This document shows, piece after piece, positions 45,311-63,943 of a stretch of 64,000 nucleotides of DNA. Source of the stretch: Candidatus Geohabitans tengchongensis (lineage in GTDB: Bacteria > Sysuimicrobiota > Sysuimicrobiia > Sysuimicrobiales > Humicultoraceae). The position numbers were made by a program, and so were the translations under genes. How positions within the stretch are numbered: position 1 is the first letter of the stretch; every line of letters starts with the position of its first letter. Location of the stretch: positions 1 through 64,000 of the forward strand of contig JAVKIH010000007.1 in assembly GCA_031459625.1 (NCBI GenBank). Direction: 5' to 3'. The notes under the pieces were generated by a model. It was not told where the DNA came from and made no database searches. It worked only from the letters and a program-made list of their open reading frames with translations.

Positions 45311-47293
45311 TCAGGGCGCGCCCAGCTCCATCCAGCGGGGGCGGTCGTAGAGCGAGTCCTCCCGGCCCACCCCGGGTCCCCGGCGGGCGGCGTAGACGCC
45401 GGTGAGGGGGAAGAAGGGCGGGGAGATGGCCGAGCGCAGGCGCGGGTCGTAGGTGAAGTCGCGGCCGTAGCCCTTCGGGGGTGAGGTGATGGCCCCGAAC
45501 TCCCCGAACCGAAACTGGACGACGCTGCCGAGGAAGTGTACCGCGCCCTTGTCCGGCACCGTGTCCCACCCCTTCACCCAGAACTGCCCGTTGGGGGCCA
45601 GGACGGCCGCATCGACGTACAGGTCGCGCGGCGTGACGAACCCGTCGATGGTGATCCGGCCGCCCAGCGACCACAGGCCCAGGACGTTGCCGGGCAGGTC
45701 GAGCGGGTCGGTGACGACGGGCGGGCGCTCGTAGACCAGGTGGTCGGTGATGTGGATGTCGCCGCTCGCGGCGATGGTCAGGCGCGTGTCGCGCTGCACC
45801 GTCCCCCACAGGCCGCCGGGGTTGGCGGGATTGGCCGAGTTGCTGCGGATCTGCCCCTCGACGTAGACCATCCCGTTGAAGAGGGCGGTGTAGGTGGTGC
45901 AGGTGGCGAACCCCGGCCCCTGGCAGGCCTGGATGCGCGTGCCGGCGGGGTCGAGGACGATCTTCCGCGTGCGGGCGGTACCGCACCCGGCGGTGCAGGC
46001 GCTCTCGACGATGATGACCTGCCGCCCGCTCTCGACGCGCAGCTCGAGGGCCTGCACGTCCCCCTGGATGTAGAGGCCCCCGCACCCCAGGCTCCCGCAG
46101 GTGTCCATCACGTAGATCCCCGGCGGGGGCGGGCCGCCGACGTCGGGCAGGTCGCTGGTGCCGCGCCGGATGGCCGCGGGGCCCGGCGGACCGCCCCACA
46201 GCGGGGTGTCGCCGACCGCGGCCCGGGCCGGGTGGACCGACCCGGGGCCGGTGAGGGTGGGCGGCGCGAGCGGGGCCACCCGGCGGATCACCGCCCCCTG
46301 CACGGCGTCGCATGGGGCGCCGCCGCTCGTGCCGCTCGACTGCTGCGGCAGGAGCGTCACCGGGCGGTCCTCGGTGAACCCGCAGTTGTGGTAGCGGATG
46401 TCCGCGTCCACCTGGGTGGTGCTCGGGTCGTTGAACGTCGGCCGTCCCCAGATCTGGAAGCGGCTGTTCGTGTGCACCGGTCCGGTGAAGACGCTCGTGG
46501 TGTACATCCAGGTGGCCGAGTCGGCCGGGTCGCTGCTGAGGATCCCCAGCGCCCATTCGTGGTAGGCCGCCCGCTCGATCAGCATGGGGAACCCGGTCCC
46601 GCTCCCCGTCCATGCCGCGGTGGGGGGCTCCCAGGCGTCGCAGGGGACGGCCCCGGTGGGCGGACCGACCAGGCAGACCGTCCGCTGCGCGTTCCCGGCC
46701 GTCCCTGTCGCCACGATCCGGTAGTCGAACCACATCAGGTAGCGCTCGGGGGCGAGCGGGCCGCCGACCTGACAGACCACGCCCGTCCGCCGGGTGGGCC
46801 GCAGCGTCACCGTGGCGTGGAAGCGCCCCAGCGAGCGCCCCGCGGGGCTGTCGGTGAGCTGCACGGGAGCCGCGGGCGTCCCCACCGCCAGCCGCACCTC
46901 GCGGTTGGCCGCGTCCTCGACCCAGTCCGTGCTGCCCAGCGTGAGCGGGTAGGCGAAGTCCCGCACGATCTGCCAGGCACCGGCCCCCGGAGTGCCGGTC
47001 TGTTCGGCCGTGCAGGGGGCGAGGAGCTGGCTCTGAGCGGCACCGGCCACGCGGACGTTGAGATCGACGGCAAAGCGCTGGCGGAGCTCCCCCAGCGCGT
47101 AGTAGGCGCCCGCTTCCGCAGCGGCGAGGGCCTGGACGCTGCGGAGCTGGTCTGCGGACATGGTGCGCTCGCCCATGGTGGTGAGGGCCATGACGCCCAC
47201 GAGCAGCGTGAGCACGAGGATGGTGGCCAGGGCGGCCATGAGCGCCACCCCACGTTCGTCGTCGACCAGGTGCACGAGGAACCGGACCGGCAT
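45311..47293 (-). CDS. Large PilX-like minor pilin/putative tip protein, paralog 1 (DUF4900-like C-terminus)
   Basis: ERG|VALMA class III signal without Glu+5; AEAG; FTGPVHTN; TIAASGDI; YDPRL...PPFFP. Confidence 0.8.
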   Translation of the reverse strand: MPVRFLVHLVDDERGVALMAALATILVLTLLVGVMALTTMGERTMSADQLRSVQALAAAEAGAYYALGELRQRFAVDLNVRVAGAAQSQLLAPCTAEQTGTPGAGAWQIVRDFAYPLTLGSTDWVEDAANREVRLAVGTPAAPVQLTDSPAGRSLGRFHATVTLRPTRRTGVVCQVGGPLAPERYLMWFDYRIVATGTAGNAQRTVCLVGPPTGAVPCDAWEPPTAAWTGSGTGFPMLIERAAYHEWALGILSSDPADSATWMYTTSVFTGPVHTNSRFQIWGRPTFNDPSTTQVDADIRYHNCGFTEDRPVTLLPQQSSGTSGGAPCDAVQGAVIRRVAPLAPPTLTGPGSVHPARAAVGDTPLWGGPPGPAAIRRGTSDLPDVGGPPPPGIYVMDTCGSLGCGGLYIQGDVQALELRVESGRQVIIVESACTAGCGTARTRKIVLDPAGTRIQACQGPGFATCTTYTALFNGMVYVEGQIRSNSANPANPGGLWGTVQRDTRLTIAASGDIHITDHLVYERPPVVTDPLDLPGNVLGLWSLGGRITIDGFVTPRDLYVDAAVLAPNGQFWVKGWDTVPDKGAVHFLGSVVQFRFGEFGAITSPPKGYGRDFTYDPRLRSAISPPFFPLTGVYAARRGPGVGREDSLYDRPRWMELGAP

Positions 47294-47313
47294 CGCGCCT
47301 CGAACCTCCCTGC

Positions 47314-48201
47314 TCACCGCGGCGGCGGGGGCGTCGGCGGTGGTGTGGGTGTGGGTGTCGGCGTCCGTGTGGGGGTGGGCGTCGGCGCGGGCGTCGGCGT
47401 CCGCGTGGGGGTGGGGGTCGGGGTCGGCGTGGGCGTCGGTCGTGGTGTCGGCGTCGGTGTGGGCGCGGGCGTTGGCGTCGGAGGCGGAGTGGGTCGTGGG
47501 GTCGGCGTGGGCGTGGGCACGGGCGTGGGGGTTGGCGTGGGTGTGGGCGGCGCGATCGCCCGCCCGGGCGTCGGGCGCCCCGGGACCGTACCCCCTCCCC
47601 CGCTCCCGCCGCCCGCCCCTGTGGGGGCCGAGCGCAGGAACAGGTCGGTGCTCACCCGCCACAGGCCGAACGGCAACCGGGTGGAGCGGCGTACCCCCAC
47701 GCGGGCCTGCAGCCTGACCACGTCCCCCGGCGCGGGTGAGGCGGTCGGCGTGCACCCCCCGGCCGCGTCGCAGTACTCGACGTGAAACTCCTCGATGCGC
47801 GCCGCCAGGACGATGGCCCCGGAGGTCACCGGGCAGCCCGGGCCCGTCCCGTCCACCAGCTCGCGCCGCAACGTCGGCGGCGTGCTCGACCCGTCGTGCC
47901 GGAAGCGGACCCGGTAGCGGCACCCCGGGAAGATGGGGTTGTCCGGCGGGACCTCCACCGTGACCCGGTCGGGGCAGAGACTGCCGGTGCACCCCGCATC
48001 GGCCACGACCGCTTCGGCCCAGCGGACCTCCTCGGCCAGATGGTCCATCCCCCGGCGCGCAGCCTGCTGCGCCTCAAGGAACTCTCCGCTCACCAGGACC
48101 CCTGAGGCAGCGCTCACCGCCATCGCATAGAGCCCCACCGCGGCGATGGCGAGGACCGCCAGGGCCACGACCACCTCCAGCAGGGAGAGGCCGCTGGCCA
48201 T
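47314..48201 (-). CDS. PilW-like minor pilin with a C-terminal Pro-Thr tail; possible alternative GTG start at 48222
   Basis: SG|LSLLE; QQAAR...EEVRWA; tail of about 78 aa of PT. Confidence 0.85.
47320..47550 (-). repeat. Degenerate 6-nt repeat encoding (Pro-Thr)n
   Basis: GGCGTG/GGCGTC/GGGGTG/GGTGTG units on the + strand. Confidence 0.95.
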
Positions 48202-48233
48202 CAGCCGGCGAGACCTGGACACGCCCACCGCCC

Positions 48234-48803
48234 TCAACTCCGCCACCACATCCCGCGCAGGATCGCGGAGGAGAGTTCGGCCCGCAGCAGGCCGTCGTGG
48301 TAGACCCGCACGGTCACCCACTTGACCAGGTTGCTGTCCGTGGCGGCGTTCCCCGTGATGGGGCACGGGGGCCCGGTCGGGTCGCGGGCCACGCGGCAGG
48401 GCACCGGGGCGGACGCCATCGCCACCTGGTCCACCAGGATCTCGTAGGCGTAGGCCCCGAAGGGCGGGGCGAAGGGGGTCGGGCCTTGCGAGGTCAGGGC
48501 GTCCCAGGCCGCGGTCCACTGCGCCAGGGTGGGCTGGGCCTCGACGCGCGCCCGCACCTCCTCGAGCGTGCGGGCCGCCAGGTTCGCCGCCACCGTCGCG
48601 CTGCCGCTGCGGTTGGTCACGACCAGGATGGTGGCGGCAGCACGCGCCGCAAAGAGCAGCGCCAGTGCCGCCAGCGTGAGGGCCACCACGACTTCCAGCA
48701 AGGTGAGGCCGCGCTCGGCCCATCGTCCCTGCCCGCGGCGCGGGATCCGGGTCGGACGCGCACGGCAGGGAGGGTGAGACAGGTTTCCAGGCGGCCAGGG
48801 CAC
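48234..48803 (-). CDS. PilV-like minor pilin; start uncertain
   Basis: RG|LTLLE, hydrophobic helix, ATVAANLA...LEE, KWVTVRV. Confidence 0.83.
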
Positions 48804-48913
48804 GAGACGCCACTCCCTCCACTCGGCCGTGAGTGCTGCAGCGACAAGGGTTGTCGGCTGGTCTGTGAACACGGGCTCATTCGACGCCCCTGGCGCGCGT
48901 CCCTCGTTTCGCT

Positions 48914-48930
48914 ACATTTGCTGACATTTG
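48914..48930. promoter_or_regulatory. Direct repeat ACATTTG x2 with 10-bp period upstream of cassette 1
   Basis: ACATTTG-CTG-ACATTTG in an AT-richer intergenic patch. Confidence 0.4.
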
Positions 48931-49000
48931 GTCGCAGGGGGATGGACGGGAGCGTGCCGGGAGTTTGGCCTGAACGTCCGGGGAAGTTCTCCCGATCCGG

Positions 49001-49522
49001 CTATGGGGCGAGCTCGACGCGGCCGCCCACGTTCACCACCACGCGGCGCTGCCCCCCGCCGGGCGTGCGCAGCACCACGGCCCCCGCGTTGGGGTTGCCG
49101 AACGGCGAGACGGTCATCGTGTTGCCCGCGAAGGAGGTGCTGGCCAGGTCGATGCGCGAGGGCAGGGTCACGGCCCGCAGCGGCTGCCAGCCGGTGGCCG
49201 GGCACCCGGTGGTGACGTCCCACGGATCGGTGGTGAACTGCAGGGTGTAGGCCTCGCCGGCCGGGTCGAAGGTCACCCGCCAGCAGCGCCGCTCGGTGCG
49301 GGCCCGCTGCTCCACCAGGCGCAGGTCCCCGACCAGCGTGCGGGCGGCGCCGGCCAGCCGGCGGTCGTCGATGAGGCTGCGGCCCCCCAGGCTCAGCGCC
49401 AGGAGGATGCCCAGCAGCACCACCACCACGACCACCTCGACCAGCGAGAGGCCCTGCTGGTCACGGCCCGGTCCAGCGGAGGAGCGTCCCATCGCCATCC
49501 CTGTTCCGTCCGCCTCCGCCAT
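49001..49522 (-). CDS. FimT/FimU/GspH-like minor pilin
   Basis: QG|LSLVE; AAR-x-L-x-x-DLR...AR; C-terminal V-x-x-x-GRV. Confidence 0.85.
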   Translation of the reverse strand: MAEADGTGMAMGRSSAGPGRDQQGLSLVEVVVVVVLLGILLALSLGGRSLIDDRRLAGAARTLVGDLRLVEQRARTERRCWRVTFDPAGEAYTLQFTTDPWDVTTGCPATGWQPLRAVTLPSRIDLASTSFAGNTMTVSPFGNPNAGAVVLRTPGGGQRRVVVNVGGRVELAP

Positions 49523-49534
49523 GCCCCTGCCGGC

Positions 49535-51586
49535 CTAGTCGCGCACCAGCTCCTCCCAGATGGGGCGGTCGTAGAGGAGGTCGACGCGATCGCGCGGGTC
49601 GGGCATGTTGGGCCACAGCAGCGCGGTGAACTGCGTGGTCAGCGGGATGAACGGGGGGGCCGTGTTGTAGAGGAAGCGCTGGTCGAAGGCCATCTCGCGC
49701 CCGTACCCGGTGATGGGATCGAAGCCGCCGAACTCCCCGAAGCGCTTCTGGGTGGCCCCGCCCAGGAAGTGGAGGGTCCCCTTGTCGGGCAGCCTGTTCC
49801 ACCCCTCCACCCAGAACTGTCCCCACGGCGCGAGCACCCCGGCGTCGATGTAGAGGTCGTTGGGGGTCATGTCCCCCACGACCGTCACGTCCCGGGGACG
49901 GATCCGCGGCGCGTCGTCGCGCGGGTTGCTCGCGTCGCAGGAGGACGGGTCGCCGGTGCGGGGGCTGGAGCACCAGGCGTACAGCCCGAGCACGTTGGCC
50001 ACCGGGTCAGTGGGCCCGGTGGGCGGCTGGGCGTAGACCAGGTGGTTGGTCACGCGGATCTCGCCGTCGGCGGCGATGGTCAGGCGGGTGTCGGGGTGCA
50101 CGGTGCCGTACAGGCCGGTCCGCGGGTCGCGCGGATCGCTCAGCACGCTGCCGTTCACAAAGAGCATGCCGTTCCACTGCTTCCCCGTGTCGACGCAGGC
50201 GGCGTCGTTCCAGGCCACGGCCCCCGGACAGACGCGCACCGCTCCGCCCGGCAGGAGGACGAACTTCTTCGCCGGGACCGCGGGGTCGGCGTGCACGACC
50301 ACGATCTCCTGCAGGCCGGCGCGGCAAGGCATCGCCGTGCACTGCAGCACCAGGTTGCGGACGTCCCCATGGACGAAGATGCCGCCGCAGGTCGCCGCGG
50401 CGCACTCGTCCATGAAGTAGATGCCCGGGGGCAGCCGCACGCCGTTGATCGTCTGGTTGCGGGCGGCGACGTCGATGGCCGGGTCGGTGGTGCGGCTGCG
50501 CACCTGGGCTTCACTGGGCTGGAGGGGCCGCGTGGTGGGGGCATCGCCGATGACGGCGCGGAAGGGGCTGTAGTCCCCGGGCGGGTTCAGCACCTGCACG
50601 TTGTCGGCCGGCCCGCGCGCCAGCGGCGCGCCCTGGTAGGCCGGCCGGTCGCAGGACGGGTTGCTGTCCGCGGCGAGGAGCTGGGGCGTGCCGCAGTTGC
50701 CGAAAAGCACGTTGGACAGGACCTGGCTCACCGTGGAGCGGAACGTCGGGGCCCCCCAGATGGCGAAGCGGCTGTTCGTGTGCACCGGCCCGGAGAAGAC
50801 CGTCGTGTCCACCAACCAGACCGGGTTGGTCGCGTCGAACGCCGTGTCCAGCGTGGCCGAGGCGAAGCAAACGTAGCAGCGCAGCCCGATAACCAGGGGG
50901 AACCCCTGGTCGCTGTCCCATCGCGGGTCGCCCTTGTCGGGGGCGGCCAGCCAGGCGCCGCAGGCGGCGGTGTTGGCCACGGACTTCAGGCAGATGGTGC
51001 GGCGAGCCTCCTGGGTGACGCCGGTGGCCACGATGAAGTAGTCGAGCGGCATGCGGAAGTACTGCGGGGGGAAGGGCGGCGGTGGCTGGCAGTCGTTGGA
51101 CCCCGGCCCCGGGGAGTTGTCGGCCGGCCGCACGTAGACCGTGGCGTACCACGCGCCCACGACGTTCCCCGCCGCGTCGCGGACCTCGATGGGGACGGCC
51201 GCGCTCCCCAGCGGGAGCCAGGCGTAGCGCTGCGCGTCGTCCTCCTGCCACTCGCCGGGGTCGCCGGCGAAGGCGGCCACCACCTTCCACGCCTGGCCGC
51301 GGTTGGTCTGGCACCAGGTGCGCAGGAGGTTGCCGTCGGCGAAGGTCACGCGGGCGGAGAGCTGGTTGGGGTGGCGCAACCGGTAGCGCAGCTCGGCCAG
51401 CGCGCGGTAGGCGCCGGCCTCGGCCAGGTGGAGCGCCTGGGCGCCGCGGCTCTGGGCGTAGGAGAGACCCGTCTCGCTCATCGTGGCCATGGCCAGCGCG
51501 GCCACGACGATGGTCAGGACGATGACGGCCAGAACGGCGCTCAACAGGGCCACGCCTGCCTGATCGCGACCGAGGGCCTTCCACAT
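49535..51586 (-). CDS. Large PilX-like minor pilin/putative tip protein, paralog 2
   Basis: [42 protein letters not shown]...PPFIP. Confidence 0.8.
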
Positions 51587-51611
51587 CGTCGAGGTCACCT
51601 CTCCTCCTGGC

Positions 51612-52700
51612 TCAGCGGCCCCGCGGCGTCGGCTTGGGCGTCGGGGTCGGGGTCGGCGTCGGGGTCGGGGTCGGCGTCGGGGTCGGGGTCGGCGTCGGCC
51701 GCGGGGTCGGCGCAAGCGTGGGGGTGGGTGTCGGCGCCGGGGTCGGCCTGGGCGTCGGGGTGGGCGTCGGGGTGGGTTTGGGGCTCGGTGACGGGCTCGG
51801 TGTCGGCAGCGGGGTCGGTGGTGGCGGTGGCGGCGTGGGTCCCGGCGTGGGCGTCGGGGCCGGGGTGGGCGCCGGCGTCGGCGTCGGCTGGGGGGTCGGC
51901 GTGGGACTCGGTCGTGGCGTGGGGGTCGGTGTCGGCGCCGGGGTCGGGGTGGGAGGCGGGGTGGGCGTCGGCGTGGGGGTGGGCGTCGGGGTCGGCGTGG
52001 GGGTGGGCGCGCCGGCGCCGAGCGTCACGACCGGGCGCGGCGGCGGCGTGCCCGCCACCGGGGGAACAGGGATCCCGGGCGTGGCCACCGCGCGGCGGAG
52101 GAAGACATCGCTCTGCACCGCACCCTCCAGGAGCCCGGCCCCCTGGGCCGGCGCCAGCCCGGCGGGGCGCGTCAGCCGCAGGTCCACCTGGATGCGGACG
52201 ACGTTCAGGGGGATCGTGGTGGGCGCGTTCGCGGCGTCGAAGTAGCGGAAGACCACGTCGCTGACCTGCGTCGCCAGCACCGTGGTCGTCGTCGCGACGC
52301 CGCGCTCCTCCACGCGCTCGAGCTGCTGGCGGGCGGCGTTCAGCCGAAAGGTCACCCGGTAGGCGGTGCGGGTGAGCGGGTTGTCAGCGGGGATGGCGAG
52401 GGTGACGCAGTCGGGCGCGAGGGCCGGCGCCGGACAGGCCAGGGTGGCCACGTCCACGCCGGCGGCCCACCGGGCTTCCTGGGCGATGCGCGAGAGGCCG
52501 ACGCGGGCCTGCTGCTGCACCTCCATGAAGGCCTCGTTCACACTCGCCGAGCGCAGCGACTCGCGCACCATCCCGTACAGCGACCCGACGACGATCACCA
52601 GGACGGCGATCCCCACGAGGACTTCGAGCAGGGTGACGCCGCGCGTGGCCCGCGGTGGCGGCCAGCGCCGCAGCGTGGGGATGGGACCGCGCCGGCGCAT
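51612..52700 (-). CDS. PilW-like minor pilin with a long C-terminal Pro-Thr tail
   Basis: RG|VTLLE; QQQAR...QEARWA; FRYFD; tail of about 130 aa of PT. Confidence 0.86.
51620..52007 (-). repeat. Degenerate 6-nt repeat encoding (Pro-Thr)n
   Basis: GGGGTC/GGCGTC/GGCGTG units on the + strand. Confidence 0.95.
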
Positions 52701-52703
52701 GGG

Positions 52704-53339
52704 CTAGCGGTGGTACGCCCCCCGCAGGATGGCCGTCGTCATGCGCACGACGCAGATGGCCTCGTCGGGCAGGGCTGCAGGGTCGAGCTGGCAGGAGACG
52801 TGCGGTGGGGGCCGGCGCGTTGTCCCCTCGCCCGGCACGGGACGGGCGCGGAAGTAGACCTCGACCGTCACCCAGCGGACCCGGTCGTCCACCGAGGGGT
52901 CCTCGTCGCGCGCGCAGTCCGGGGCGTAGGGGGAGGCGCCCGGGAGGCTCGGCTCGACGTTCCAGGCCGGCAGGAGGAGCGCCTCCTGGCCCGCCCGCGC
53001 CGTCACCGCCGCCTCGTTCACCAGGATCCGGTAGCTGTACGCCCCGAAGGGCGCCGCGAATGGGATCGGGGGATCGCTGGGGTTGGGCGGGGTGTTGGCG
53101 ATGGCGCAGAAGGCGTTCCGCCAGCCCACGCGGGTCGTCTGGGCCTCCACCGACGTGCGCAGCTGCTCCAGTTGACGTGCCGCCAGTCCCGTCGCCACCG
53201 TCACGCTCCCGCCCTGGGCGGTGACGCTGAGGATCGTGAGGAAGGCCCGGGTGATCAGGAGGATGACGGCCGCCAGCAGCGACAGCGCCACCAGGATCTC
53301 GATGAGCGTAAATCCCCGCTGGCCTCTCATCCGGCCCAT
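52704..53339 (-). CDS. PilV-like minor pilin
   Basis: RG|FTLIE; VATGLAARQLEQ; paralog of 48234-48803 (shared PFAxPFGAYxY and WVTV). Confidence 0.86.
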   Translation of the reverse strand: MGRMRGQRGFTLIEILVALSLLAAVILLITRAFLTILSVTAQGGSVTVATGLAARQLEQLRTSVEAQTTRVGWRNAFCAIANTPPNPSDPPIPFAAPFGAYSYRILVNEAAVTARAGQEALLLPAWNVEPSLPGASPYAPDCARDEDPSVDDRVRWVTVEVYFRARPVPGEGTTRRPPPHVSCQLDPAALPDEAICVVRMTTAILRGAYHR

Positions 53340-53582
53340 CCCGGCTCCCCTCCCGAAGACCGTGCCCCGTTGGCGTGCGCTCCAGACCGTCCCCCGCGCT
53401 CCCCGAGGCGACATGCCCGGCCGGGGGAGGCCCGATCCGCACGCCGGCCGGGCTGCCGCCCGGTATGGGAAACGGCCGGTTCCGGTGGATTTTCCGGGGG
53501 TGGTCAGGCGTCTGTCCGTCCGCCGGATGGCGGCGCCCCTGGGCCCCACCAGGGCTGGGTGTGGTGACGATCCCCTCCGGCG

Positions 53583-55406: not shown

Positions 55407-55458
55407 GCGCAGCGCCGCACCTCGCACCGGGGCGGGACGGGTGTGCCGGGGCATGGAA

Positions 55459-56295
55459 TCAGCGCGGGTAGCCGGCGGGCGCGTGGGTGGGGGCGGGGGC
55501 GGGTCGCTCCTCCGTGGAAGCGGTCTCGTCCTCCGGCACGGCCTCGCCCGAGCCTGGCGGCCGCTCTCCCCTAGCCCGGGCGGAGGGCTGCGCTCGGTCA
55601 TCGGCGGTGAGCGCCGTCACGGGCCGAGGGGTGGGCCGCCAGGAGAGATCCCGTCCGGGTTCACCGGCGAGCGGCTCGGTCGGAACGGGCGAGGGGAGCT
55701 CCGCCACCCCGACGTTGCGGAGGAGGATGTCGGCCGGTGTGGTCCTGCGCACGCCCCTCCCGCCGGGGGAGGCCGTGGTCACCTCGACCTGCAGGCGGGC
55801 CACCTCGCGGGCGTGGGCGGGCTGCCCACCCTGCGCGGTCAGGTACCGGAAGGTGAGCTGGGCGACGCCGGAGGCGAGCACCGCCTCCTGGCCGTCCTGG
55901 CGGCGCACCACCTCCTGGCGCCGCGGGTCGTACCGGAACTCCACCCCGTAGGGGCGGCCCGGACGGATGGGATTGGCGGCGGGGATGCGCAGCGCCACCC
56001 GGTCGGGGCACAGGCCGGTTGCCCCGCACCCGGCGAGAGGCAGGATCGCTTCCGCCCACCGGACTTCCTCGCCCAGCCGCTCGGCCACGAGGCGCCCCGC
56101 CTGCTGGGCATCCAGGGCATCCTCCACCAGTCCAAAGGACTGCATGGCGGTGAGGACCAGGCCGTAGACCCCCGCCAGGGCGACGGCCACGACGGCCAGG
56201 CCGACGACGATCTCGATGAGGGTGTAGCCGGCATCGCTCCCGGAGCGCTCGGCGTCGCCTCGGTCGAGTTCGCAGCCCCGGCGCATGGCGGGCAT
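55459..56295 (-). CDS. PilW-like minor pilin with a P/T/S-rich but non-repetitive tail
   Basis: AGGAGG RBS; AG|YTLIE; QQAGR...EEVRWA; CPDRV shared with 47314-48201. Confidence 0.85.
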   Translation of the reverse strand: MPAMRRGCELDRGDAERSGSDAGYTLIEIVVGLAVVAVALAGVYGLVLTAMQSFGLVEDALDAQQAGRLVAERLGEEVRWAEAILPLAGCGATGLCPDRVALRIPAANPIRPGRPYGVEFRYDPRRQEVVRRQDGQEAVLASGVAQLTFRYLTAQGGQPAHAREVARLQVEVTTASPGGRGVRRTTPADILLRNVGVAELPSPVPTEPLAGEPGRDLSWRPTPRPVTALTADDRAQPSARARGERPPGSGEAVPEDETASTEERPAPAPTHAPAGYPR

Positions 56296-56500
56296 ATCCC
56301 CTCCTGACGCGGCCGGTCTCTGGGCGCACGCAGGAGCCCGGAGTGGCGGGGATGGGGAACCGTGGAGGGAGCGTAGCACGGGACCTTCCTTAAACCTACT
56401 ACCGGATCAGCCAGAACCCTCCTCCCCCCCGGCCCCGGTCCTGGCGGAATCCCGGTCCCGTTCCGGCGTATCCTCAGGACAACGGCCTCCGGAGCCGAGC

Positions 56501-56530
56501 GAGGGACGCGTGGAGGAGGGACGCGTGGAG
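56501..56530 (+). repeat. Perfect 15-nt tandem duplication in the divergent intergenic region
   Basis: GAGGGACGCGTGGAG x2. Confidence 0.8.
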
Positions 56531-56629
56531 ACCGGCGAGGTCGCGGAGGAGACGAGGGAGGCGCTGAGGGAGCCCTCACACGCGCTCGAACGCAGGAGCC
56601 GCGGGCGGCCCGCCGGCTCCGCGGCGCAG

Positions 56630-57787
56630 GTGGACGCGCGCCGCACAGCGGCAGAAACCTTGCTCGTCTTCGCCGCCGTCCTGGCCGTCTACCTGGCCGC
56701 TACGCCCCGGACGAACCAGGCCTACCGCCACTTCGTCTACCAGGCGGACGCCTTCCTCCACGGCCACGTCGACCTGCGCGGCCTCCCGGCGTACTACCAC
56801 GACGTCGTCCACCTGGATGGGAAGGTCTACGCCCCCTTCCCCCCGGTGCCGGCCGTCCTCCTCCTCCCTCTGGTGGCGGTGGTGGGGACGGACCTGGACC
56901 AGGGGCGGGTCGGGCAGGTATTGGCCGCGCTCGCCGTCGCCGTCTTCACGGCGGGGCTGCGCCGGCTGGGACTGCCCCGGGCGGTGCGCCTGTGCACCGC
57001 GGCGGCGCTGGCCTTCGGGAGCGTGCTGTGGCCTGCCACGGCCATCGGCACGACCTGGTTCTTCGCCCAGGTGGTCGTGGTGCTGGCGGCGGCGGCGCTG
57101 GTCTGGGAGCTGGCCGGGCCGGCTCGAGGCGCGGTGGCAGGTGCACTCCTGGCGGCAGCCTGGCTGAGCCGGGTGAGCCTGCTCCCGGCAGCGCCGGCGG
57201 TAGCCCTGTGCCTCTGGACCCGCCACCGCCGGCCTACAGCCCTGTGGGCCTTCGCCGCGGTGCAGGTCGTGGGGCTCCTCATCTATCTGGCCTTCAACCA
57301 GGCCCGTTTCGGGGACCCCCTGCAGCTCGGGTACCGCCTCCTCTCGATGGGGGCGCCCAACGCGGAGGCGGTGGCGCGGTGGGGCTTCTTCAACGTGCGC
57401 TACATCCCCCACCACCTCTACGCCATGTTCCTCCAGGGGCCGGAACTGATGGAGGGACCTCCCTTCCTCCGCCCCTCCCCATGGGGCCTCGCCTTGATCT
57501 TCACGAGCCCGCTCGCGGCGCGGCTCCTCTTCACGCCGCCACCCCCGGAGGTCTGGTGGCCGTGGGGCGCTGTCGTCCTCTCGCTCGTGCTGCCGATGCT
57601 GGCCTACTTCTCGGTGGGGTGGGTGCAGTTCGGGTACCGCTACAGTCTGGACTGGTGGGTCTTCCTGCTGGTGCCGCTGGCCTACGCGCTGCGGCCCGCG
57701 CCACGCGTGGTGGACTACCTGCTGCTCGCCGCCGGGATCGCCATGAACGCGCTCGGCGTCTACTGGGTGCAACGGCTGGGGTGGTGA
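56630..57787 (+). CDS. Polytopic membrane protein, probable GT-C-fold glycosyltransferase; start uncertain
   Basis: About 10 TMs; QADAFL-x-G, G-x-x-Y-x-PFPP-x-PA, N-x-ARFGDP, QFGYRYSLD. Confidence 0.65.
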   Translation: MDARRTAAETLLVFAAVLAVYLAATPRTNQAYRHFVYQADAFLHGHVDLRGLPAYYHDVVHLDGKVYAPFPPVPAVLLLPLVAVVGTDLDQGRVGQVLAALAVAVFTAGLRRLGLPRAVRLCTAAALAFGSVLWPATAIGTTWFFAQVVVVLAAAALVWELAGPARGAVAGALLAAAWLSRVSLLPAAPAVALCLWTRHRRPTALWAFAAVQVVGLLIYLAFNQARFGDPLQLGYRLLSMGAPNAEAVARWGFFNVRYIPHHLYAMFLQGPELMEGPPFLRPSPWGLALIFTSPLAARLLFTPPPPEVWWPWGAVVLSLVLPMLAYFSVGWVQFGYRYSLDWWVFLLVPLAYALRPAPRVVDYLLLAAGIAMNALGVYWVQRLGW

Positions 57788-59085
57788 GCGTGACCGGGAG
57801 TCCGGCCGGCCCCGGCCTCGTGGCGGACCCGCTCCCCGAGCCACCCGAGCGCCTCCCTGCGGCGTCGGCGCAGGCGCGCCGTCTGTGGGTGTGGCTGGCG
57901 GTGGCCGCGGCCCTGCGCGTGGCCATCCTGCCGCACGGGGGCTTCCCGTCGGACATCGCCTCCTTCAAGGCGTGGGCGGCCACGCTGGCCGAGCACGGGC
58001 CCCGCGGCTTCTACGGCCGGGGGTTTGCCGACTACCTGCCCGGCTACCTGTACGTGCTGTGGGGCGTGGGTGAGCTGACGGCCGCCCTCCGCCTCAACGA
58101 CGCCGCTGCGCTCGTCCTGCTGAAGCTCCCCGCCGCGCTCGCCGACCTCCTCGGTGCGGCGGTGGTGCTGCGGCTCGCCCGCCGCGTCCTGCCGGAGGCG
58201 GGCGCGGTGACCGTGGCCGTCCTCTACCTCCTCCACCCCGCGCTGCTCTTCACGACGGCCTACTGGGGACAGGCCGACAGCGTGGGCGGGCTCCTGGGGG
58301 CGGCCGCCCTGTGGCTGGCGCTCCAGGGCCATCTGCTGGCGTGGAGCGTGGCGGCGCTGGCCGTCCTGGCCAAGCCGCAGACCGCACCGCTGCTGGGCGT
58401 GATGGGGGTCCTGCTGCTGCGCCGGGCGCTGTGGCCGCCCGAGCGTCCTCCCGCATTCCGGCCGCAGCCCGGCCCCGTCGCCGCGGCCCTCCCCCTCTTC
58501 CTGGCCACGGCCGTGCTGGTCGCCGCCCCCTTCGGGGTCGGCCTGCTCGGCCTGCTCCACCTCCTGCGCAGTGCCGCCGAGGTCTACCCCTACGGGAGCG
58601 TCATGGCCTTCAACCTGTGGGGGGCCGTGCAGGGGTTCTGGCAGAGCGACCTCGCGCCGGTGGCGGGCTGGCCGCCGCTGCAATGGGGGATCGCGCTCAC
58701 CGCGGTGGCGCAGGCCGTGGTGCTGTGGGCGGTGTGGCGCCGTCCCGACGAGCGCACCGTGGTGACCGGTGCCGCCACGGCGCTCACGGCCGCCTTCCTC
58801 CTCCCCACGCGGATCCACGAGCGCTATCTTCTGCCGGCCCTCCCCTTCCTGCTGGTGGCGGGGGCGGCCGACCGGCGCGTCCGGCTCCCCGCCGGGCTCC
58901 TCAGCCTCGTCCTGACGCTGAACCTGCTCTACGCCTACACCCGTCCCTACCTGCAGACGGTGACGCTGCCGGGGTGGCTGGAGGCCACACTCTTCAGCCC
59001 GCCGGCCACCCGGGTCCTCAGCGCCCTGGCGGCAGCGACCCTGCCGCTCCTGCTGCGGGCGCTCGTCCTCCCGCCGCGCTCCTGA
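57784..59085 (+). CDS. GT-C lipid-phosphate-sugar-dependent glycosyltransferase (mannosyltransferase-like)
   Basis: SDI-x-x-F-x-x-W, DYLPGYLY, KLP-x-x-LAD, WGQADS, KPQ, HERY; many TMs. Confidence 0.75.
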   Translation: MSVTGSPAGPGLVADPLPEPPERLPAASAQARRLWVWLAVAAALRVAILPHGGFPSDIASFKAWAATLAEHGPRGFYGRGFADYLPGYLYVLWGVGELTAALRLNDAAALVLLKLPAALADLLGAAVVLRLARRVLPEAGAVTVAVLYLLHPALLFTTAYWGQADSVGGLLGAAALWLALQGHLLAWSVAALAVLAKPQTAPLLGVMGVLLLRRALWPPERPPAFRPQPGPVAAALPLFLATAVLVAAPFGVGLLGLLHLLRSAAEVYPYGSVMAFNLWGAVQGFWQSDLAPVAGWPPLQWGIALTAVAQAVVLWAVWRRPDERTVVTGAATALTAAFLLPTRIHERYLLPALPFLLVAGAADRRVRLPAGLLSLVLTLNLLYAYTRPYLQTVTLPGWLEATLFSPPATRVLSALAAATLPLLLRALVLPPRS

Positions 59086-59764
59086 GCTGCCAGTACAGGC
59101 GGAACAGGTCGTAGAAGGCCCGCAGGATCACCCGGAGCCGTCCGCCGGTCTGGCGCCCGGCCCGCCGCGGCCGGTGGGAGACCGGGACCTCGGCGAACCG
59201 CGCCCCGGCCCGTCGCGCCCGGGCCAGCAGTTCGGCCGTCATGAAGGCGCCGCGCGACTCCAGCGGCAGCGCGCGCACCAGGTCGCCGCGCAGCAGCTTG
59301 AACGCGCAGTTCACGTCCCGCACCCGCACGTCCAGCAGCGCCGCCATGAGCCGCCGCCACAGCGCGGCGAACCAGCGGCGGTGGAGCGGGTCGGCGCGGT
59401 GGACGCGGTAGCCCAGGACAAAGTCCGCGCCCTCGCCGGCGGCGGCGAGCAGCCGCGGCAGCTCCGCCGGGACGAACTGCCCGTCGGCGTCCATCAGGAG
59501 GATCCAGGTCCCGCGGGAGGCGGCGAAGCCCGTGCGCACCGCCGCACCGTACCCCTGGTTGCGAGCGTGGCGCAGCAGGTGCACCCGCGGGTCAGCGCGC
59601 CCCAGGGCCTGGGCCGCGGCCGTCGTCCCGTCGGTGGAGCCGTCGTCGACGATGAGCACCTCGTAGGACCGCCCGGTGGCCGCCAGCGCGGCGGTGAGCT
59701 CGCGCACCGTGCGCTCGAGGTTGGCCGCCTCGTTGAAGGCGGGGAGGACGGCGCTCAGATCCAC
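59018..59764 (-). CDS. GT2 polyprenyl-phosphate sugar (mannose) synthase, DPM1-like
   Basis: LPAFNE, VDDGSTDGT, N-x-GYG-x-A, MDADGQF, DVNCAFK, EVPV-x-H-x-PR. Confidence 0.9.
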   Translation of the reverse strand: MDLSAVLPAFNEAANLERTVRELTAALAATGRSYEVLIVDDGSTDGTTAAAQALGRADPRVHLLRHARNQGYGAAVRTGFAASRGTWILLMDADGQFVPAELPRLLAAAGEGADFVLGYRVHRADPLHRRWFAALWRRLMAALLDVRVRDVNCAFKLLRGDLVRALPLESRGAFMTAELLARARRAGARFAEVPVSHRPRRAGRQTGGRLRVILRAFYDLFRLYWQLRSAAGGRAPAAGAAGSLPPGR

Positions 59765-60963
59765 GTCCCGAACCACATCAGCCGCTGGAAGCGCGCCTGG
59801 GCCAGGGGCAGTGCCGACAGCAGTGGGTAGTAGGCGACGAACCACAGGGCGGCCGCAGCCAGGTAGAGGCCCACGACGGCCGGTCCGGCCCGCGCGCGCC
59901 CGCGGGCCAGGGTCAACGCCAGGGCCAGCACCATGAACGGCAGGGCGGGGAGCATGTGGTAGAGGAAGAGCGCCCGGCCGATGAAGACGTACGGGAGGTA
60001 GCTGGCCAGGAATCCGGCCAGGACGAAGGTGCCGGCCGGTGTGCGACGGCGTACCGTCTCCCACCCCAGGAGGAGGAAGGCGGGCAGCGCCGCCCACCAC
60101 ACCACCACGTTGCCGAGCGCGATGATGCCGCGCACCTGCCCGCCGCCCAGGTCCTGGTAGTCGTACCAGATCGGCCGCACCAGCAGGGGCCACGACCACC
60201 ACGCCGACTGGTACGGGTGCGTGGCGGTGAGCCCGGCGTGGAAGCGGAACATCCAGACGTGGAAGCGCGCCCACTCCCCGAGGTCGTGCCCGCGCAGGAA
60301 GTAGGGGGTCCAGGCCAGGAGGTAGACGAGGAGCGGCACAAGGCCGTAGGCCCCGGCCAGGTGGGCCCAGTGCCGCCGTGGCAGGCGCGCCCACCCCTGC
60401 CACAGCAGCAGCGCCAGGAAGAGCGGGATCACCCCGAGCGGGGCCGCCCCTGTCCACTTCGTGGCCACGCTCATCCCCGCGGCCGCCCCCGAGAGGTACA
60501 GCCACCCGACCCGGCCCGACCGCAGGTAGCGCCAGAACGCCCAGTAGGCGGCGACGAGGAAGGTGACGAGGAAGATGTCCGGCTTGGCGATGCGGCTCTC
60601 CACGAAGGCCAGACCGTCCAGGGCCAGCAGCACCGCCGCCATGGCTGCGGTGGACGCGCTGCCGGTGACCTCGCGGGCCAGGAGGAAGACGAGGAGCACG
60701 AGCAGGGTCCCGCTCACCGCGGGGGCCAGCCGCCACCCCAGCGACCGGTCGCCGGCCACCGCCATGCCGGCGGCGATGAGGAGCTTGCTCATGGGCGGGT
60801 GGGTGATCTCTTCGGTGATCTCCTGCCCGGCCAGGTACTGGCGTGCCGCCTTGGCGTAGTAGATCTCGTCGAAGATCATGGCGGGCGGCTCGGCGAGGCG
60901 GAAGGCGCGGACGCCGCCGGCGAAGAGCAAGACGGCGGCGAGCAGGACCAGGGGACGCGACAC
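59755..60963 (-). CDS. PMT/GT39-family protein O-mannosyltransferase-like
   Basis: IFDEIYY (DE motif), HPP-x-x-K, GWR, SR, KW-x-G, HPYQS-x-WWSWP, FLYH-x-LP. Confidence 0.85.
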   Translation of the reverse strand: MSRPLVLLAAVLLFAGGVRAFRLAEPPAMIFDEIYYAKAARQYLAGQEITEEITHPPMSKLLIAAGMAVAGDRSLGWRLAPAVSGTLLVLLVFLLAREVTGSASTAAMAAVLLALDGLAFVESRIAKPDIFLVTFLVAAYWAFWRYLRSGRVGWLYLSGAAAGMSVATKWTGAAPLGVIPLFLALLLWQGWARLPRRHWAHLAGAYGLVPLLVYLLAWTPYFLRGHDLGEWARFHVWMFRFHAGLTATHPYQSAWWSWPLLVRPIWYDYQDLGGGQVRGIIALGNVVVWWAALPAFLLLGWETVRRRTPAGTFVLAGFLASYLPYVFIGRALFLYHMLPALPFMVLALALTLARGRARAGPAVVGLYLAAAALWFVAYYPLLSALPLAQARFQRLMWFGTWI

Positions 60964-60999
60964 CGACTTGGGTACGGAGGTGAGCGGCTCGATTGTCCC

Positions 61000-61260
61000 T
61001 CAGGACGGCGGGCTGTCAGGCGGCAGCGCCTGCCCGTGGACGACCCGCCAGACCCCGGCCGCCCGCGCCACGTCGTGCTCGTCCACCACCGCAGAGACTT
61101 CGGCCACGAGGTATCCCTCGGCATCCCGCACCCGCAGGCGCCCGCGCACGACCACATCGGCGAACAGCAGGGCCTGGAGGTCGGGGAGGGGCACCTGCCG
61201 GCGTTCGGCCTCGTGGGCCAGAGCAGCCTCTAACCTGTCGACACGGGCATCCAGCGCCAT
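61000..61260 (-). CDS. Short hypothetical protein, possibly a deleted remnant of a PD-(D/E)xK-like family
   Basis: ADVVVRGR...YLVAEVS...DVARAA then an abrupt GVWRV end; preceded by a consensus promoter. Confidence 0.5.
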   Translation of the reverse strand: MALDARVDRLEAALAHEAERRQVPLPDLQALLFADVVVRGRLRVRDAEGYLVAEVSAVVDEHDVARAAGVWRVVHGQALPPDSPPS

Positions 61261-61277
61261 GGCGGATCTCCGGGCCC

Positions 61278-61306
61278 ATCCTAGAAGTGGGGGCTGGGGG
61301 TGTCAA
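61278..61306 (-). promoter_or_regulatory. Near-consensus sigma70 promoter for the 61260 ORF and probably the PMT and GT2 genes
   Basis: TTGACA-N17-TAGGAT. Confidence 0.7.
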
Positions 61307-61342
61307 ATGAGCTCGACGATGCGCTATGCGAACCGTCGAGGA

Positions 61343-63943
61343 TCAGGGCCCGACCTTGGTGGAGGAACCGTCGGCGAAGAGCGTCACCAGGATGGACTCG
61401 CCGGCGACCAGCCCGCACTTCATCGGCCGGCCCCCGCCGGCCTGACCGGTCGCCCGCATCTGAATCTCTGTGGCGGTGCCACCCGGCGGGACGATCTCGT
61501 ACGCCCAGCACGAACCGGAGGTCGGGGGTGGCACGAAGCCGAGCTGGGCCGGGTCGGTGATGCCGACCCACGTGTCGTACTCCTGGTAGTGCATCCAGGC
61601 GAAGCGCTTCAGCTCGATGAGGACCTGGTGGGCCTCGGCGGCCAGGGCCCCCTCCCGGGCGCCCAGGTACCGCGGCAGGGCCAGTGAGAGCAGGACCCCC
61701 AGGATGGCCAGCACCACCACCAGCTCGACCAGGGTGAAGCCGGACGCTGCGGGATCGGGTCCGTCGCGGCCAGGGCCACTCCCCGCAGGCCCGCCCTGTC
61801 CCCTGCGCAGCCGCCCGCGCCACCTTGTGACGCCCCGGGCCGTCGCGGCCTTGGCTGCAGCGCGCGCCGTTACCGCGTCGGCCGCGGCGCGGATCGCCTC
61901 CAGGTGGTGCGGCGTGATGCGCGGTCCGTAGAGCGCCTCCTCCACCACGGCCGTCATCCTCCTCACCTCCGGCCAGCCCAGCGCGCGCTCGGCCCGCCCG
62001 GCGAACTCCCGTGGCGTCTCCGCCTCGCCGCGCGCCAACCCGCGGCGGCGCAGCACGCGCAGGCAGCGCGCATACTCCGCCAGGACGCCGTCCCGCGGGT
62101 CGGCCGGCCGTCGACGACGCCCCATCCGGGCCCCGACCAGGATGATGAGGATCAGGAGGAGTGCGGCCTGCGCTGCCGGGGCCCATAGAGGGGATGCCCA
62201 CCCCGGCCGCCCCGCAGACCCGTCGGGGTGCCCCGGCCAGCGCGTGCGCAGGTAGCGGGCCAGCCCCTCGAAGCCCCACCGCGGCGCCGTCCGGGGCAGC
62301 GCCGCCGGCTCGGCGAACCCCGGTGTGGGCTCGAACTCCACCCAGCCGACCTCCGGGAAGAAGACCTCGACCCAGGCGTGCGCGTCGCTGCTGCGCACCT
62401 CCAGGAGCCCGGTCAGCGGGTGGAAGGTGCCGGGTGTGTACCCGGTGGCGAGCCGCGCCGGGACCCCCACCAGGCGCAGCAGAACAGCCATGGCGCTGGC
62501 GAACTGCTCGCAGTACCCCCGCCGCTCCTCGAAGAGGAAGTAGTCCACCGCGTCCCCCGGCCGGCGCTGCGGCGGGATGGTGAGGTCGTAGCGGTAGTGC
62601 GTCCAGAGGTACCGGTTGACCCGCAGGGCCCGCTCGTAGGGGGTGCGCGCGCCCGCCGTGATCGCCTCGGCCAGCCGCCGGACCCGCTGCGGCACTGTGT
62701 CGGGCACCTGCAGGTAGCGCGCCAGGAGCTCGTCCGGGTAGCGGTCGCCGGCGGCGGCCAGCCGGGCCGGCGTGGGGTCGACCACGCGCGAGACGACGGT
62801 GTAGATCATCCCCGGCTCGAGCACGAAGGGGAGCCGCACCGCCGAGTAGCGGTCGACGAAGACGTGCCGCCCCGGGAAGTAGACCTCCTCCACGCGGGGG
62901 GCGGCGAAGGCGACATTGGGCTGTTCGCGCTCGACGTAGAAGGTCTGGATCAGGCGCCGTGCCCCCCGCGACGAGGCGTAGCTGTCGTCGCGGCCGCGGA
63001 GGACCTCGATGGGAGGGACGACGGCGGTGTGGCGGCGTACCCGGTCGTCGCCGATGCGCCAACCCGTCCCGGTGTAGACATCGAAGACCAGCGCCCGCCA
63101 CAGCCGCGGCTCCCCGGCGCGCACGCGCATGACCAGGGCGTCGTTGAGCCGACCGCGCAGCCGCAGCTCCACGGTGGGACTGAAGCCAAAGTACCCGTGC
63201 GGGTTGAAGACGGTGGTGCCGCCCGCCGTGCCCGCGGGGTAGGCCGGGTTGACCACCTCGCCGTCCAGCGTCGGTCCCAGCGGGACGCGCGGCGTGAAGG
63301 GGAACGAGGTGATGAAGAGGCCGTCCAGGCGCGGGGTGGCCAGGAAGACCACGACGGCGAGGGCCGCCAGCGGCACCGCGGCGCGCACGGCCGAGCTGCC
63401 GGTCTCGCGCAGCCCCGCCAGGACCCGCAGGCCGCTCCCCACGCGGCCCCCCTCCGTCGCCCTTTCCGCAGCCGGCGCGGGCCTCCCGCCTCCTGCCGCC
63501 TCGCGCGCCGCCTCGGCGGCATTCAGCATCAGCGCCGCGACGGCGGCCACCAGGTAGGGGGTCAGGTAGAGGGCAAAGCGCAGGTCCAAGCTGAAGGCCG
63601 CCGCCACGGCCATCAGCACCAGCGAGGTGAGGAGGCTGAAGAGCAAATCGCGCCGGCGCGGCAGGTCGAAGCTGTGCAGCACCTGCAGCCACAGCAAAAA
63701 GACGGTGAGGGGGATGCTGGTGTGGTACGGCGCCGCCGCCAGCGCCCGCAGGAAGGCCCACCCGGCGAGGAGGCACCCCAGGGCCAGCGCCGCCTTCAGC
63801 CAGGTGTTGCGCCGCCGGCGGCGGTACCAGGAGACGACGAACCCGCAGGTGGCCAGGGCCAGCATCTCCCAGCGCAGAGTCCCGAAGTCCTGGTGCGCGG
63901 TGATGGCCAGGATGCTGAGGAGGACGCAGAGGTAGACCCACAC
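61343..63943 (-). CDS. TgpA-like transglutaminase-domain membrane protein (DUF3488-TGase-TM-DUF4129) fused to a C-terminal type IV pilin; frame stays open to the window end
   Basis: N-terminal TMs; GYCEQFASAMAVLLR, DAHAWVEV, GWVEFEPTP; DUF4129-like GL-x-R-x-x-x-ETP-x-EFA...E-x-x-LYG; then SG|FTLVELVVVLAILGVLLSLALPRY. Confidence 0.85.
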   Translation of the reverse strand: MWVYLCVLLSILAITAHQDFGTLRWEMLALATCGFVVSWYRRRRRNTWLKAALALGCLLAGWAFLRALAAAPYHTSIPLTVFLLWLQVLHSFDLPRRRDLLFSLLTSLVLMAVAAAFSLDLRFALYLTPYLVAAVAALMLNAAEAAREAAGGGRPAPAAERATEGGRVGSGLRVLAGLRETGSSAVRAAVPLAALAVVVFLATPRLDGLFITSFPFTPRVPLGPTLDGEVVNPAYPAGTAGGTTVFNPHGYFGFSPTVELRLRGRLNDALVMRVRAGEPRLWRALVFDVYTGTGWRIGDDRVRRHTAVVPPIEVLRGRDDSYASSRGARRLIQTFYVEREQPNVAFAAPRVEEVYFPGRHVFVDRYSAVRLPFVLEPGMIYTVVSRVVDPTPARLAAAGDRYPDELLARYLQVPDTVPQRVRRLAEAITAGARTPYERALRVNRYLWTHYRYDLTIPPQRRPGDAVDYFLFEERRGYCEQFASAMAVLLRLVGVPARLATGYTPGTFHPLTGLLEVRSSDAHAWVEVFFPEVGWVEFEPTPGFAEPAALPRTAPRWGFEGLARYLRTRWPGHPDGSAGRPGWASPLWAPAAQAALLLILIILVGARMGRRRRPADPRDGVLAEYARCLRVLRRRGLARGEAETPREFAGRAERALGWPEVRRMTAVVEEALYGPRITPHHLEAIRAAADAVTARAAAKAATARGVTRWRGRLRRGQGGPAGSGPGRDGPDPAASGFTLVELVVVLAILGVLLSLALPRYLGAREGALAAEAHQVLIELKRFAWMHYQEYDTWVGITDPAQLGFVPPPTSGSCWAYEIVPPGGTATEIQMRATGQAGGGRPMKCGLVAGESILVTLFADGSSTKVGP

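Follow-up and report, generated by a model that had tools for sequence, protein, structure and literature searches.

A PMT-type O-glycosyltransferase block and Thr/Pro-tailed PilW pilins in a type IVa pilus locus of Sysuimicrobiota

The first 64,000 nucleotides of contig JAVKIH010000007.1 from Candidatus Geohabitans tengchongensis (GCA_031459625.1), referred to here as the window (C45:1-64000; 74% GC, in a genome of 2.76 Mb), carry the type IVa pilus gene cluster of one family of CSP1-3 (Sysuimicrobiota). This family consists of uncultured bacteria from hot springs and soil. Within the cluster lie genes for a protein O-glycosyltransferase of the PMT type, a GT2 glycosyltransferase and two GT-C or GT-C-like membrane proteins, and two of the three PilW minor pilins encoded nearby end in long Thr/Pro repeats. 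On balance, we favour the explanation that the PMT-GT2-GT-C block is an inherited, general protein O-glycosylation system housed in the pilus locus of this family, with the PilW tails as likely substrates. Taken by itself, glycosylation of the tails by this PMT appears likely from the sequences, and the system is probably general rather than pilus-dedicated. A preliminary description of the window had proposed a glycosylation system belonging to a multi-tip pilus; the gene-level observations behind it largely stand, whereas comparison with relatives speaks against dedication to the pilus.

The glycosyltransferase block and the PilW tails

The gene pmt (59755..60963, minus strand) encodes a 402-residue protein that exceeds the cut-offs of PF02366 (88 bits) and PF16192 (87 bits) and matches yeast Pmt1 (E 5e-18) in an alignment that brings the DE motifs into register; on NF058602 it scores 107, below the cut-off of 800. 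Its motifs comprise D32-E33 (the loop 1 DE), R124/D129 (Rx4D) and R330/F333 (Rx2Y/F). F31-D32-E33, R124, H249, Y267 and R330 are invariant in 32 of 32 aligned rows, and D129 is Asp in 27 rows and Glu in five from the families f3 and f5 (f1 designates the family of this genome; f2, f3, f4, f5 and f7 are the other families compared). The remaining motif positions in the 32 homologues change only between Asp and Glu or Tyr and Phe, except for the position after F333. In the excerpted text of PMC12331936, the PMT motif residues are essential for activity or form a Pro-binding aromatic cradle, and the Mycobacterium tuberculosis (Mtb) enzyme, MtPMT, prefers Pro-containing acceptors; the correspondence with the Mtb residue numbers was made by motif, not by aligning the Mtb sequence. 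Judged by these matches, pmt is a true GT39/PMT orthologue, in agreement with the PMT-like enzyme of the preliminary description. The relatives G007, G018 and G006 (L130, L141, L142) have a second PMT that is divergent (31-33% identity) and that, in G007 and G006, is found close to genes resembling those for Tad/Flp pilus components.

The adjoining GT2 gene (59018..59764, minus strand) encodes 248 residues without a predicted transmembrane (TM) helix and is assigned by Pfam, NCBIfam and solved relatives to the polyprenol-phosphate sugar synthase family (ArnC/DPMS/GtrB). It had been described as a DPM1-like donor synthase; its nearest solved relatives are ArnC (E 6e-26), DPMS (3e-19) and GtrB (5e-12), in that order, and its best NCBIfam match, PgfS, is far below cut-off. 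Because GT2 is nearer to ArnC than to DPMS, neither the DPM1-like label nor mannose, the sugar assumed earlier, is established. A possible mannose-1-phosphate guanylyltransferase scores 147, below its cut-off of 440. Two further GT-C-like genes had also been reported. GTC_b (57790..59085, plus strand) bears this out: it is a GT87/PIG-M/Alg6-like GT-C by an Atlas GT87 assignment and a profile match to GPI mannosyltransferase 1 (E 2e-5), its Alg6_Alg8 Pfam score is below cut-off, and D57 and D83 are invariant in 20 homologues. GTC_a (56630..57787, plus strand) is a multi-TM protein, labelled a putative GT-C because eight TM helices are predicted and the Atlas gives a weak pointer (PMT_2 for 13% of a cluster). 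It has no Pfam or PDB match, none of 20 homologues matches a GT family, and hhalign to GTC_b gives a probability of 5.9%; one or two copies are present in most f1 loci. Past the window end, a GtrA gene (C45:66871-67284) adds a predicted flippase, so that donor synthase, flippase and GT-C are all encoded as a GtrABC-like three-component gene set, a type of glycosylation system treated in the excerpted text of PMC11127046.

The tails are carried in this locus by PilW only, in two of three copies, and not by pilins more widely as had been suggested. PilW3 (47314..48201, minus strand) ends in 77 residues (47317-47547) with 29 Thr and 40 Pro, and PilW2 (51612..52700, minus strand) in 131 residues (51615-52007) with 43 Thr, 4 Ser and 67 Pro. 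PilW1 (55459..56295, minus strand), identified by Pfam, has 7 Thr in its last 76 residues and no Thr/Pro repeat. Among the 21 f1 relatives with the pilM-side cassette visible, 13 encode an in-frame Thr/Pro-tailed PilW (one short; three partial at contig ends), and in most relatives the tail holds 22-30 Thr in its last 60 residues, the prepilin being anchored in the membrane and the tail lying on its periplasmic side. One relative, G045, has the repeat out of frame (L231:8192-9592) through slippage or assembly error; if real, this could be tail on/off variation. In the remaining seven the cassette lacks PilW. In six of these the contig also carries the glycosyltransferase block, and in G019 GTC_a alone is seen; five of the seven were searched, and PilW elsewhere in them is untailed or short and Pro/Ser-ended. 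No tail was found on the 17 PilW-like proteins of f2, f4 and f5. In a PilW profile search of 1.84 billion representatives, a tail-like stretch was present in 7 of the best 40 matches and in none of the next 110; a word-index search with PilW2 returned a single match and is uninformative.

Other exported proteins of this genome have comparable segments. A Pro/Thr/Ser linker is present in BamA in all 14 fully visible f1 genomes; it is shorter in f3 and f5 and almost missing in f2 and f7. BamA, an LptD-like protein and a third protein, which we take from its translation to be of the SPOR type, all carry Pro/Thr linkers and are candidate glycoproteins (L124:2265-3941; L125:2071-4095; L126). The LptD-like linker was dropped as a conserved substrate, being found in 1 of 14 genomes. 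A broad genome scan for Ser/Thr/Pro-rich segments was overwhelmed by frames lying outside genes and was set aside.

The history of the block was traced across relatives, leaving out of the counts extra loci that are possibly duplicates of genomes already counted. PF16192 matches occur in 23 of 25 other f1 genomes, 9/9 of f5, 1/1 of f3, 1/18 of f2, 0/18 of f4 and 0/1 of f7; pilM was found in 38 of 40 genomes searched. Among the pmt loci of 24 f1 relatives, tgpA lies at most two genes upstream in 22 (the other two are contig ends). In 18 of the 24 the contig also has pilus genes no more than 20 kb away, and the remaining six contigs are 4-11 kb long. Within f1, linkage of the glycosyltransferase genes to the cassettes is thus family-wide and the tails are conserved, as the earlier proposal would have it. 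None of nine pmt loci from f2, f3 and f5 (stretches of 7.8-40 kb) contains a pilus gene, and pilM lies elsewhere in the genome in all four f5 genomes tested. In f3 and f5 the block adjoins housekeeping-looking genes, presumably tilS/ftsH by their translations, and an ArnE/F-like flippase occurs in three genomes; this small gene sits between pmt and GT2 (L061:4534-4950; L046; L062), G026 being among the genomes concerned. In a quick tree, the only basis for the PMT history, the f1 enzymes are sister to those of f3 and f5, and no root was used for the direction of the move. The simplest history would be that an old glycosylation block was relocated to the pilus locus in the ancestor of f1, a direction that we infer. 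In f2 loci that have no PMT block (L109, L112, L117), MoxR-DUF58-TgpA still directly precedes pilD and pilus genes, which suggests that the link of TgpA to pili is an older one.

In the proposed mechanism, GT2 would load a nucleotide sugar onto polyprenol phosphate and GtrA would flip the lipid-linked sugar. PMT would then move it, in the periplasm, onto Thr residues of Pro-rich disordered segments, tails and linkers alike, and GTC_b, perhaps with GTC_a, may extend the glycan. A single machine would be primed for alternative tips by several FimT-PilV-PilW-PilX sets that include a ComZ-like PilX, and some of these tips may bear a stiff, protease-resistant glycosylated tail.

A narrower account would have the block recruited in f1 for the PilW tails and little else, with tips swapped to change the glycan display. 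It draws on the physical linkage across the family, the insertion of cassettes among glycosyltransferase genes in G001 and G012 and the appearance of tails solely in the family with that linkage. We nevertheless consider it unlikely: the block (in G019, GTC_a only) is kept in the seven relatives whose cassette has no PilW, including the five with untailed or short Pro/Ser-ended PilW elsewhere, it is unlinked from pili in nine of nine genomes outside f1, pmt-GT2 has its own promoter-like site, and BamA bears a similar linker. It is the distribution of this BamA linker (14/14 in f1, shorter in f3 and f5) that favours, without proving, a general system. The tails could also be plain polyproline-type spacers, either unmodified or modified by the Wzy_C and PMT_2 GT-C proteins encoded beside pilA, with the PMT block serving other proteins or glycolipids and linked by inherited gene order. 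Other candidate transferases do occur in the same locus, f4 genomes that lack this PMT also have Thr/Pro linkers, and the gene order conserves unrelated neighbours as well; yet the PMT has the full protein O-mannosyltransferase motif set, acceptor-binding aromatic residues included, and the tails present their many Thr residues on the periplasmic side, which makes this account improbable. Doubtful, too, is the fullest version, in which pili with exchangeable tips carry a mucin-like PilW tail densely O-glycosylated by a eukaryote-type PMT and, in this genus, prepilin peptidase makes an internal cut in a transglutaminase-pilin polyprotein, so that one pilin is coupled 1:1 to an envelope cross-linking enzyme.

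Several observations weigh against the general, PMT-based system with alternative tips favoured here. Clear BamA Thr/Pro linkers occur in two f4 genomes (G032 and G038) without a PF16192 match, and the LptD-like linker is confined to this genome among the 14; such linkers therefore need not have this PMT. Tail and pilus linkage fall together on one branch, f1; their match amounts to one event and provides no statistical association. The closest solved relative of GT2 is ArnC, and GTC_a is a putative glycosyltransferase on weak grounds. The genome holds five other PMT_2-type GT-Cs and two Wzy_C genes, whose products could modify the tails instead, and PilW1 and PilX1 could be decaying rather than forming an alternative tip.

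Minor-pilin cassettes and locus layout

The labels PilV, PilW, PilX and FimT rest on family matches, gene order and size. All genes of the set lie on the minus strand: PilX3 (45311..47293), PilW3, PilV3 (48234..48803, start uncertain), FimT of the GspH family (49001..49522), PilX2 (49535..51598), PilW2, PilV2 (52704..53339), PilX1 (53583..55406) and PilW1, identified by Pfam or NCBIfam and, for PilW2 and PilW3, by family match and composition. Where three minor-pilin cassettes had been described, there are indeed three PilX and three PilW, together with two PilV and the sole FimT; V2-W2-X2-FimT is the one complete set, W1-X1 lacks PilV and FimT, and V3-W3-X3 lacks FimT. No PilY1 is found among the genes annotated in these cassettes. 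Invertible or recombining cassettes were considered and rejected, as there are no near-identical or recombinase-type inverted repeats and the paralogues are 60-87% alike in DNA over short stretches.

The three PilX proteins belong to the DUF4900 family and are 34-38% identical to one another. A structure model of PilX3 built with 25 homologues reached pLDDT 85, and its best Foldseek match was Thermus ComZ (6qvi, E 2.6e-8). By VIA, the comparison with ComZ gives Z 14.0 with an rmsd of 11.9 over 363 residues, and ice-binding solenoids give Z 11-12; the TM-score is just 0.26-0.31 and the rmsd high, with the domains matching separately. As modelled, PilX is a pilin fold with an inserted ComZ-like beta-solenoid. 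A single-sequence model was unusable (pLDDT 36), and a PilX profile found no match among PDB sequences. In G001, G014 and G019 (L033, L060, L138), loss of pilW coincides with PilX shortened to about 250-290 residues, and genus g8 has a cassette without pilW and with full-size PilX retained. Two more DUF4900 cassettes with untailed PilW are located on C15 and an orphan pilW on C46 (L127:1242-8419; L128:1593-2264); cassettes of the C15 type are those found among the glycosyltransferase genes of G001 and G012.

The cassettes follow pilO, pilN and pilM (42732..45009), with pilD (39788..40534; PF06750, PF01478) and pilQ (37240..38910; Secretin, Secretin_N and AMIN domains) nearby, all on the minus strand and all confirmed by Pfam or NCBIfam as first described. 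The encoded secretin, BamA and LptD-like protein mark the host as diderm. Also on the minus strand are a Pro/Ala-rich protein at the PilP position (38879..39574), conserved in relatives in its C-terminal part and without a Pfam match, and a GAF-GGDEF diguanylate cyclase (41528..42520), assigned from its domains and syntenic across the family. The genes had been called contiguous, and they do form one cluster; they are not a single operon but several transcription units, because GTC_a and GTC_b face the opposite way and a promoter-like site precedes pmt-GT2. This region (61278..61345, minus strand) was defined by motif scan and folding. The sigma70-like site (61306-61278) agrees with 10 of 12 consensus positions, the scan giving 2 sites versus 0.2 in shuffles, and a hairpin 3' of the fusion stop folds at -17.6 kcal/mol, a figure without a shuffle control. 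An 86-residue shortened remnant of a coiled-coil protein (61000..61260, minus strand) corresponds to a 243-residue homologue at the same place in L214; an intact copy exists at L031:3246-3824, and the family recurs at variable positions in these loci.

Beyond the window, the contig encodes DUF58, MoxR, GtrA, Wzy_C, two PMT_2 proteins, pilA, pilC, pilT, pilB, a second pilB and a fourth cassette. Directly downstream of pilA, C45:66871-73277 (L031:5872-12278) holds GtrA, Wzy_C, a GT2 fragment and the two PMT_2 GT-Cs; this stretch is highly variable among relatives and resembles a variable major-pilin glycosylation island. The second PilB bears TPRs and is accompanied by the fourth FimT-V-W-X cassette (C45:81687-87195; L032:5688-11196), whose PilX has weak ice-binding-like matches.

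The TgpA-pilin fusion

At 61343..63943 (minus strand), domain matches define a single open reading frame (ORF) of 866 residues in which TgpA_N, transglutaminase and DUF4129 domains are fused in frame to a PilA-like pilin (N_methyl). The transglutaminase keeps Cys478 and His522, has Glu538 at the third triad position and sits behind DUF58 and MoxR. The pilin has a G|F-x-x-x-E motif, an N_methyl match of 26 bits, which is over cut-off, and a TM segment at 738-756; its predicted cut, G735|F736, would give a mature pilin encoded at 61343-61738. The fusion described earlier is real, and assembly error was ruled out by unbroken contigs, junction-spanning contigs and a second fused lineage. In the likely source study, two runs have contigs that carry the ORF unbroken and with no differences; runs X1 and X4, possibly from that study, were not counted as independent, and X4, an RNA run used as contigs only, is silent on expression. 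The junction is spanned by contigs of three other studies. In run X5, 17 of 18 differences are listed and none is a stop; in X6, 30 of 53 are listed and the frame was checked in part.

As part of a conserved system, by contrast, the fusion fails: in 34 family genomes, non-fusion pilin matches sit in open frames of at most 332 residues, and the fusion is confined to this genus-level lineage. The second lineage (P0002/L214) keeps it at 89% protein identity. Between the two, the fused pilin shows 21 synonymous versus 6 amino-acid changes and is under purifying selection. The ORF would have arisen recently, in this lineage alone, when a spare PilA paralogue became joined to the MoxR-DUF58-TgpA operon; the pilin is likely freed by PilD out of the read-through protein, made from an internal start, or both. 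In a hydropathy scan, G735|F736 falls just after a likely cytoplasmic segment, and PilD could therefore release the pilin.

Alternatively, the fusion may be an accidental stop-codon loss, with the pilin translated from an internal Shine-Dalgarno-ATG at 61957 and the read-through product incidental, a contender to which we give somewhat less than an even chance. Both fused lineages have GGAGGT 7 nt ahead of Met663 (noticed post hoc), GGAGG is so placed at only 174 of 10,439 internal ATGs, and four unfused relatives in which the site was located have no Met at this position. The linker is also poorly conserved, at 56% DNA identity versus 92-93% on both flanks, and its openness says little because 63-79% of randomly mutated linkers remain stop-free. 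On the other side, both lineages lack a stop between the parts, which means that full translation of TgpA always includes the pilin, and the linker indels are all multiples of three. The internal start would give a leader of about 72 residues, which is long for a type IVa prepilin and counts against this account.

Comparison with known systems

If the general O-glycosylation system is as proposed, PMT-type O-glycosylation, studied in Actinobacteria and eukaryotes, would extend to a diderm thermophile and soil phylum and to pilus-tip proteins. Glycans forming a brush at the tip could modulate adhesion or guard against proteases and phages, and the GT2-GtrA-PMT set would be a compact, likely thermostable tool for glyco-engineering of Thr/Pro peptides. 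The fusion offers a natural test of whether prepilin peptidase can cleave a multi-pass membrane protein at an internal site. In the literature covered, mostly non-subscription papers without supplements, no GT39 PMT in a pilus locus, PMT-glycosylated minor pilin, tailed PilW or TgpA-pilin fusion was found. The main text of PMC11604079 has no occurrence of pili, pilus or glycosyl, and its supplements could mention these genes.

The closest enzymatic parallel is actinobacterial and eukaryotic O-mannosylation (GT39; MtPMT Rv1002c, yeast Pmt1/2/4), which shares the PMT and PMT_4TMC domains, the DE, Rx4D and Rx2Y/F motifs, the aromatic cradle, a lipid-linked donor made by a GT2 and, as predicted here, Pro-rich Thr acceptors. 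Unlike MtPMT and the yeast enzymes, the present PMT is known from genes alone, and its gene lies in a diderm host inside a pilus locus. In the streptococcal Pgf (PgfS/PgfM1/PgfM2) and GtrB/PgtC2 systems, a GT2 lipid-sugar synthase likewise works with GT-C enzymes, and such pairs add sugars to many exported proteins at disordered segments rich in Ser/Thr, according to the excerpted text of PMC12041528. The hosts of Pgf are monoderm, whereas the locus studied here has a PMT_4TMC-type orthologue, Thr/Pro repeats on pilins and a diderm host.

Pilin glycosylation as described so far had been set apart from this locus in the preliminary description, a contrast that is too sharp. TfpW, the pilin-arabinosylating enzyme of Pseudomonas group IV, is itself a GT-C encoded by the pilin genes, with a lipid-linked monosaccharide donor, a GtrA-like helper and Ser/Thr O-linkage, as far as the excerpts of 10.1101/2020.04.19.049825 describe it, and in the present genome a Wzy_C gene (O-antigen ligase/oligosaccharyltransferase family) lies 4 kb from pilA. 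TfpW differs in being Emb-like with a TPR region and in modifying the globular domain of the major pilin, whereas a GT39 enzyme and disordered minor-pilin tails are predicted here. O-glycans on Thermus pilins are also on record (excerpts of PMC7203116).

Several FimT/U-PilV-PilW-PilX sets per machine are likewise known, from Myxococcus xanthus clusters 1-3 (three minor-pilin clusters on one machine; PMC7541494) and from cyanobacterial Com/EPS sets (two priming sets with solenoid PilX; PMC13759059), and Thermus ComZ shares the solenoid of PilX. Thr/Pro tails on PilW were not found in the excerpts of these two multi-tip papers. The present locus differs in having no PilY1 annotated in its cassettes and two cassettes that are partial. 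The transglutaminase resembles TgpA (PA2873; excerpts of PMC3507681) and the MoxR-DUF58-transglutaminase trio in TgpA_N, the transglutaminase domain, Cys478/His522 and the preceding DUF58 and MoxR; it differs from PA2873 in Glu538 at the third triad position and in the in-frame C-terminal pilin of this lineage. Transglutaminase-family genes have been linked to archaeal type IV pilus loci as well, according to excerpts of PMC4858521. With GT-C pilin glycosylation, as in TfpW, and multiple tip cassettes both already known, what this family presents is a new, family-wide combination of known parts.

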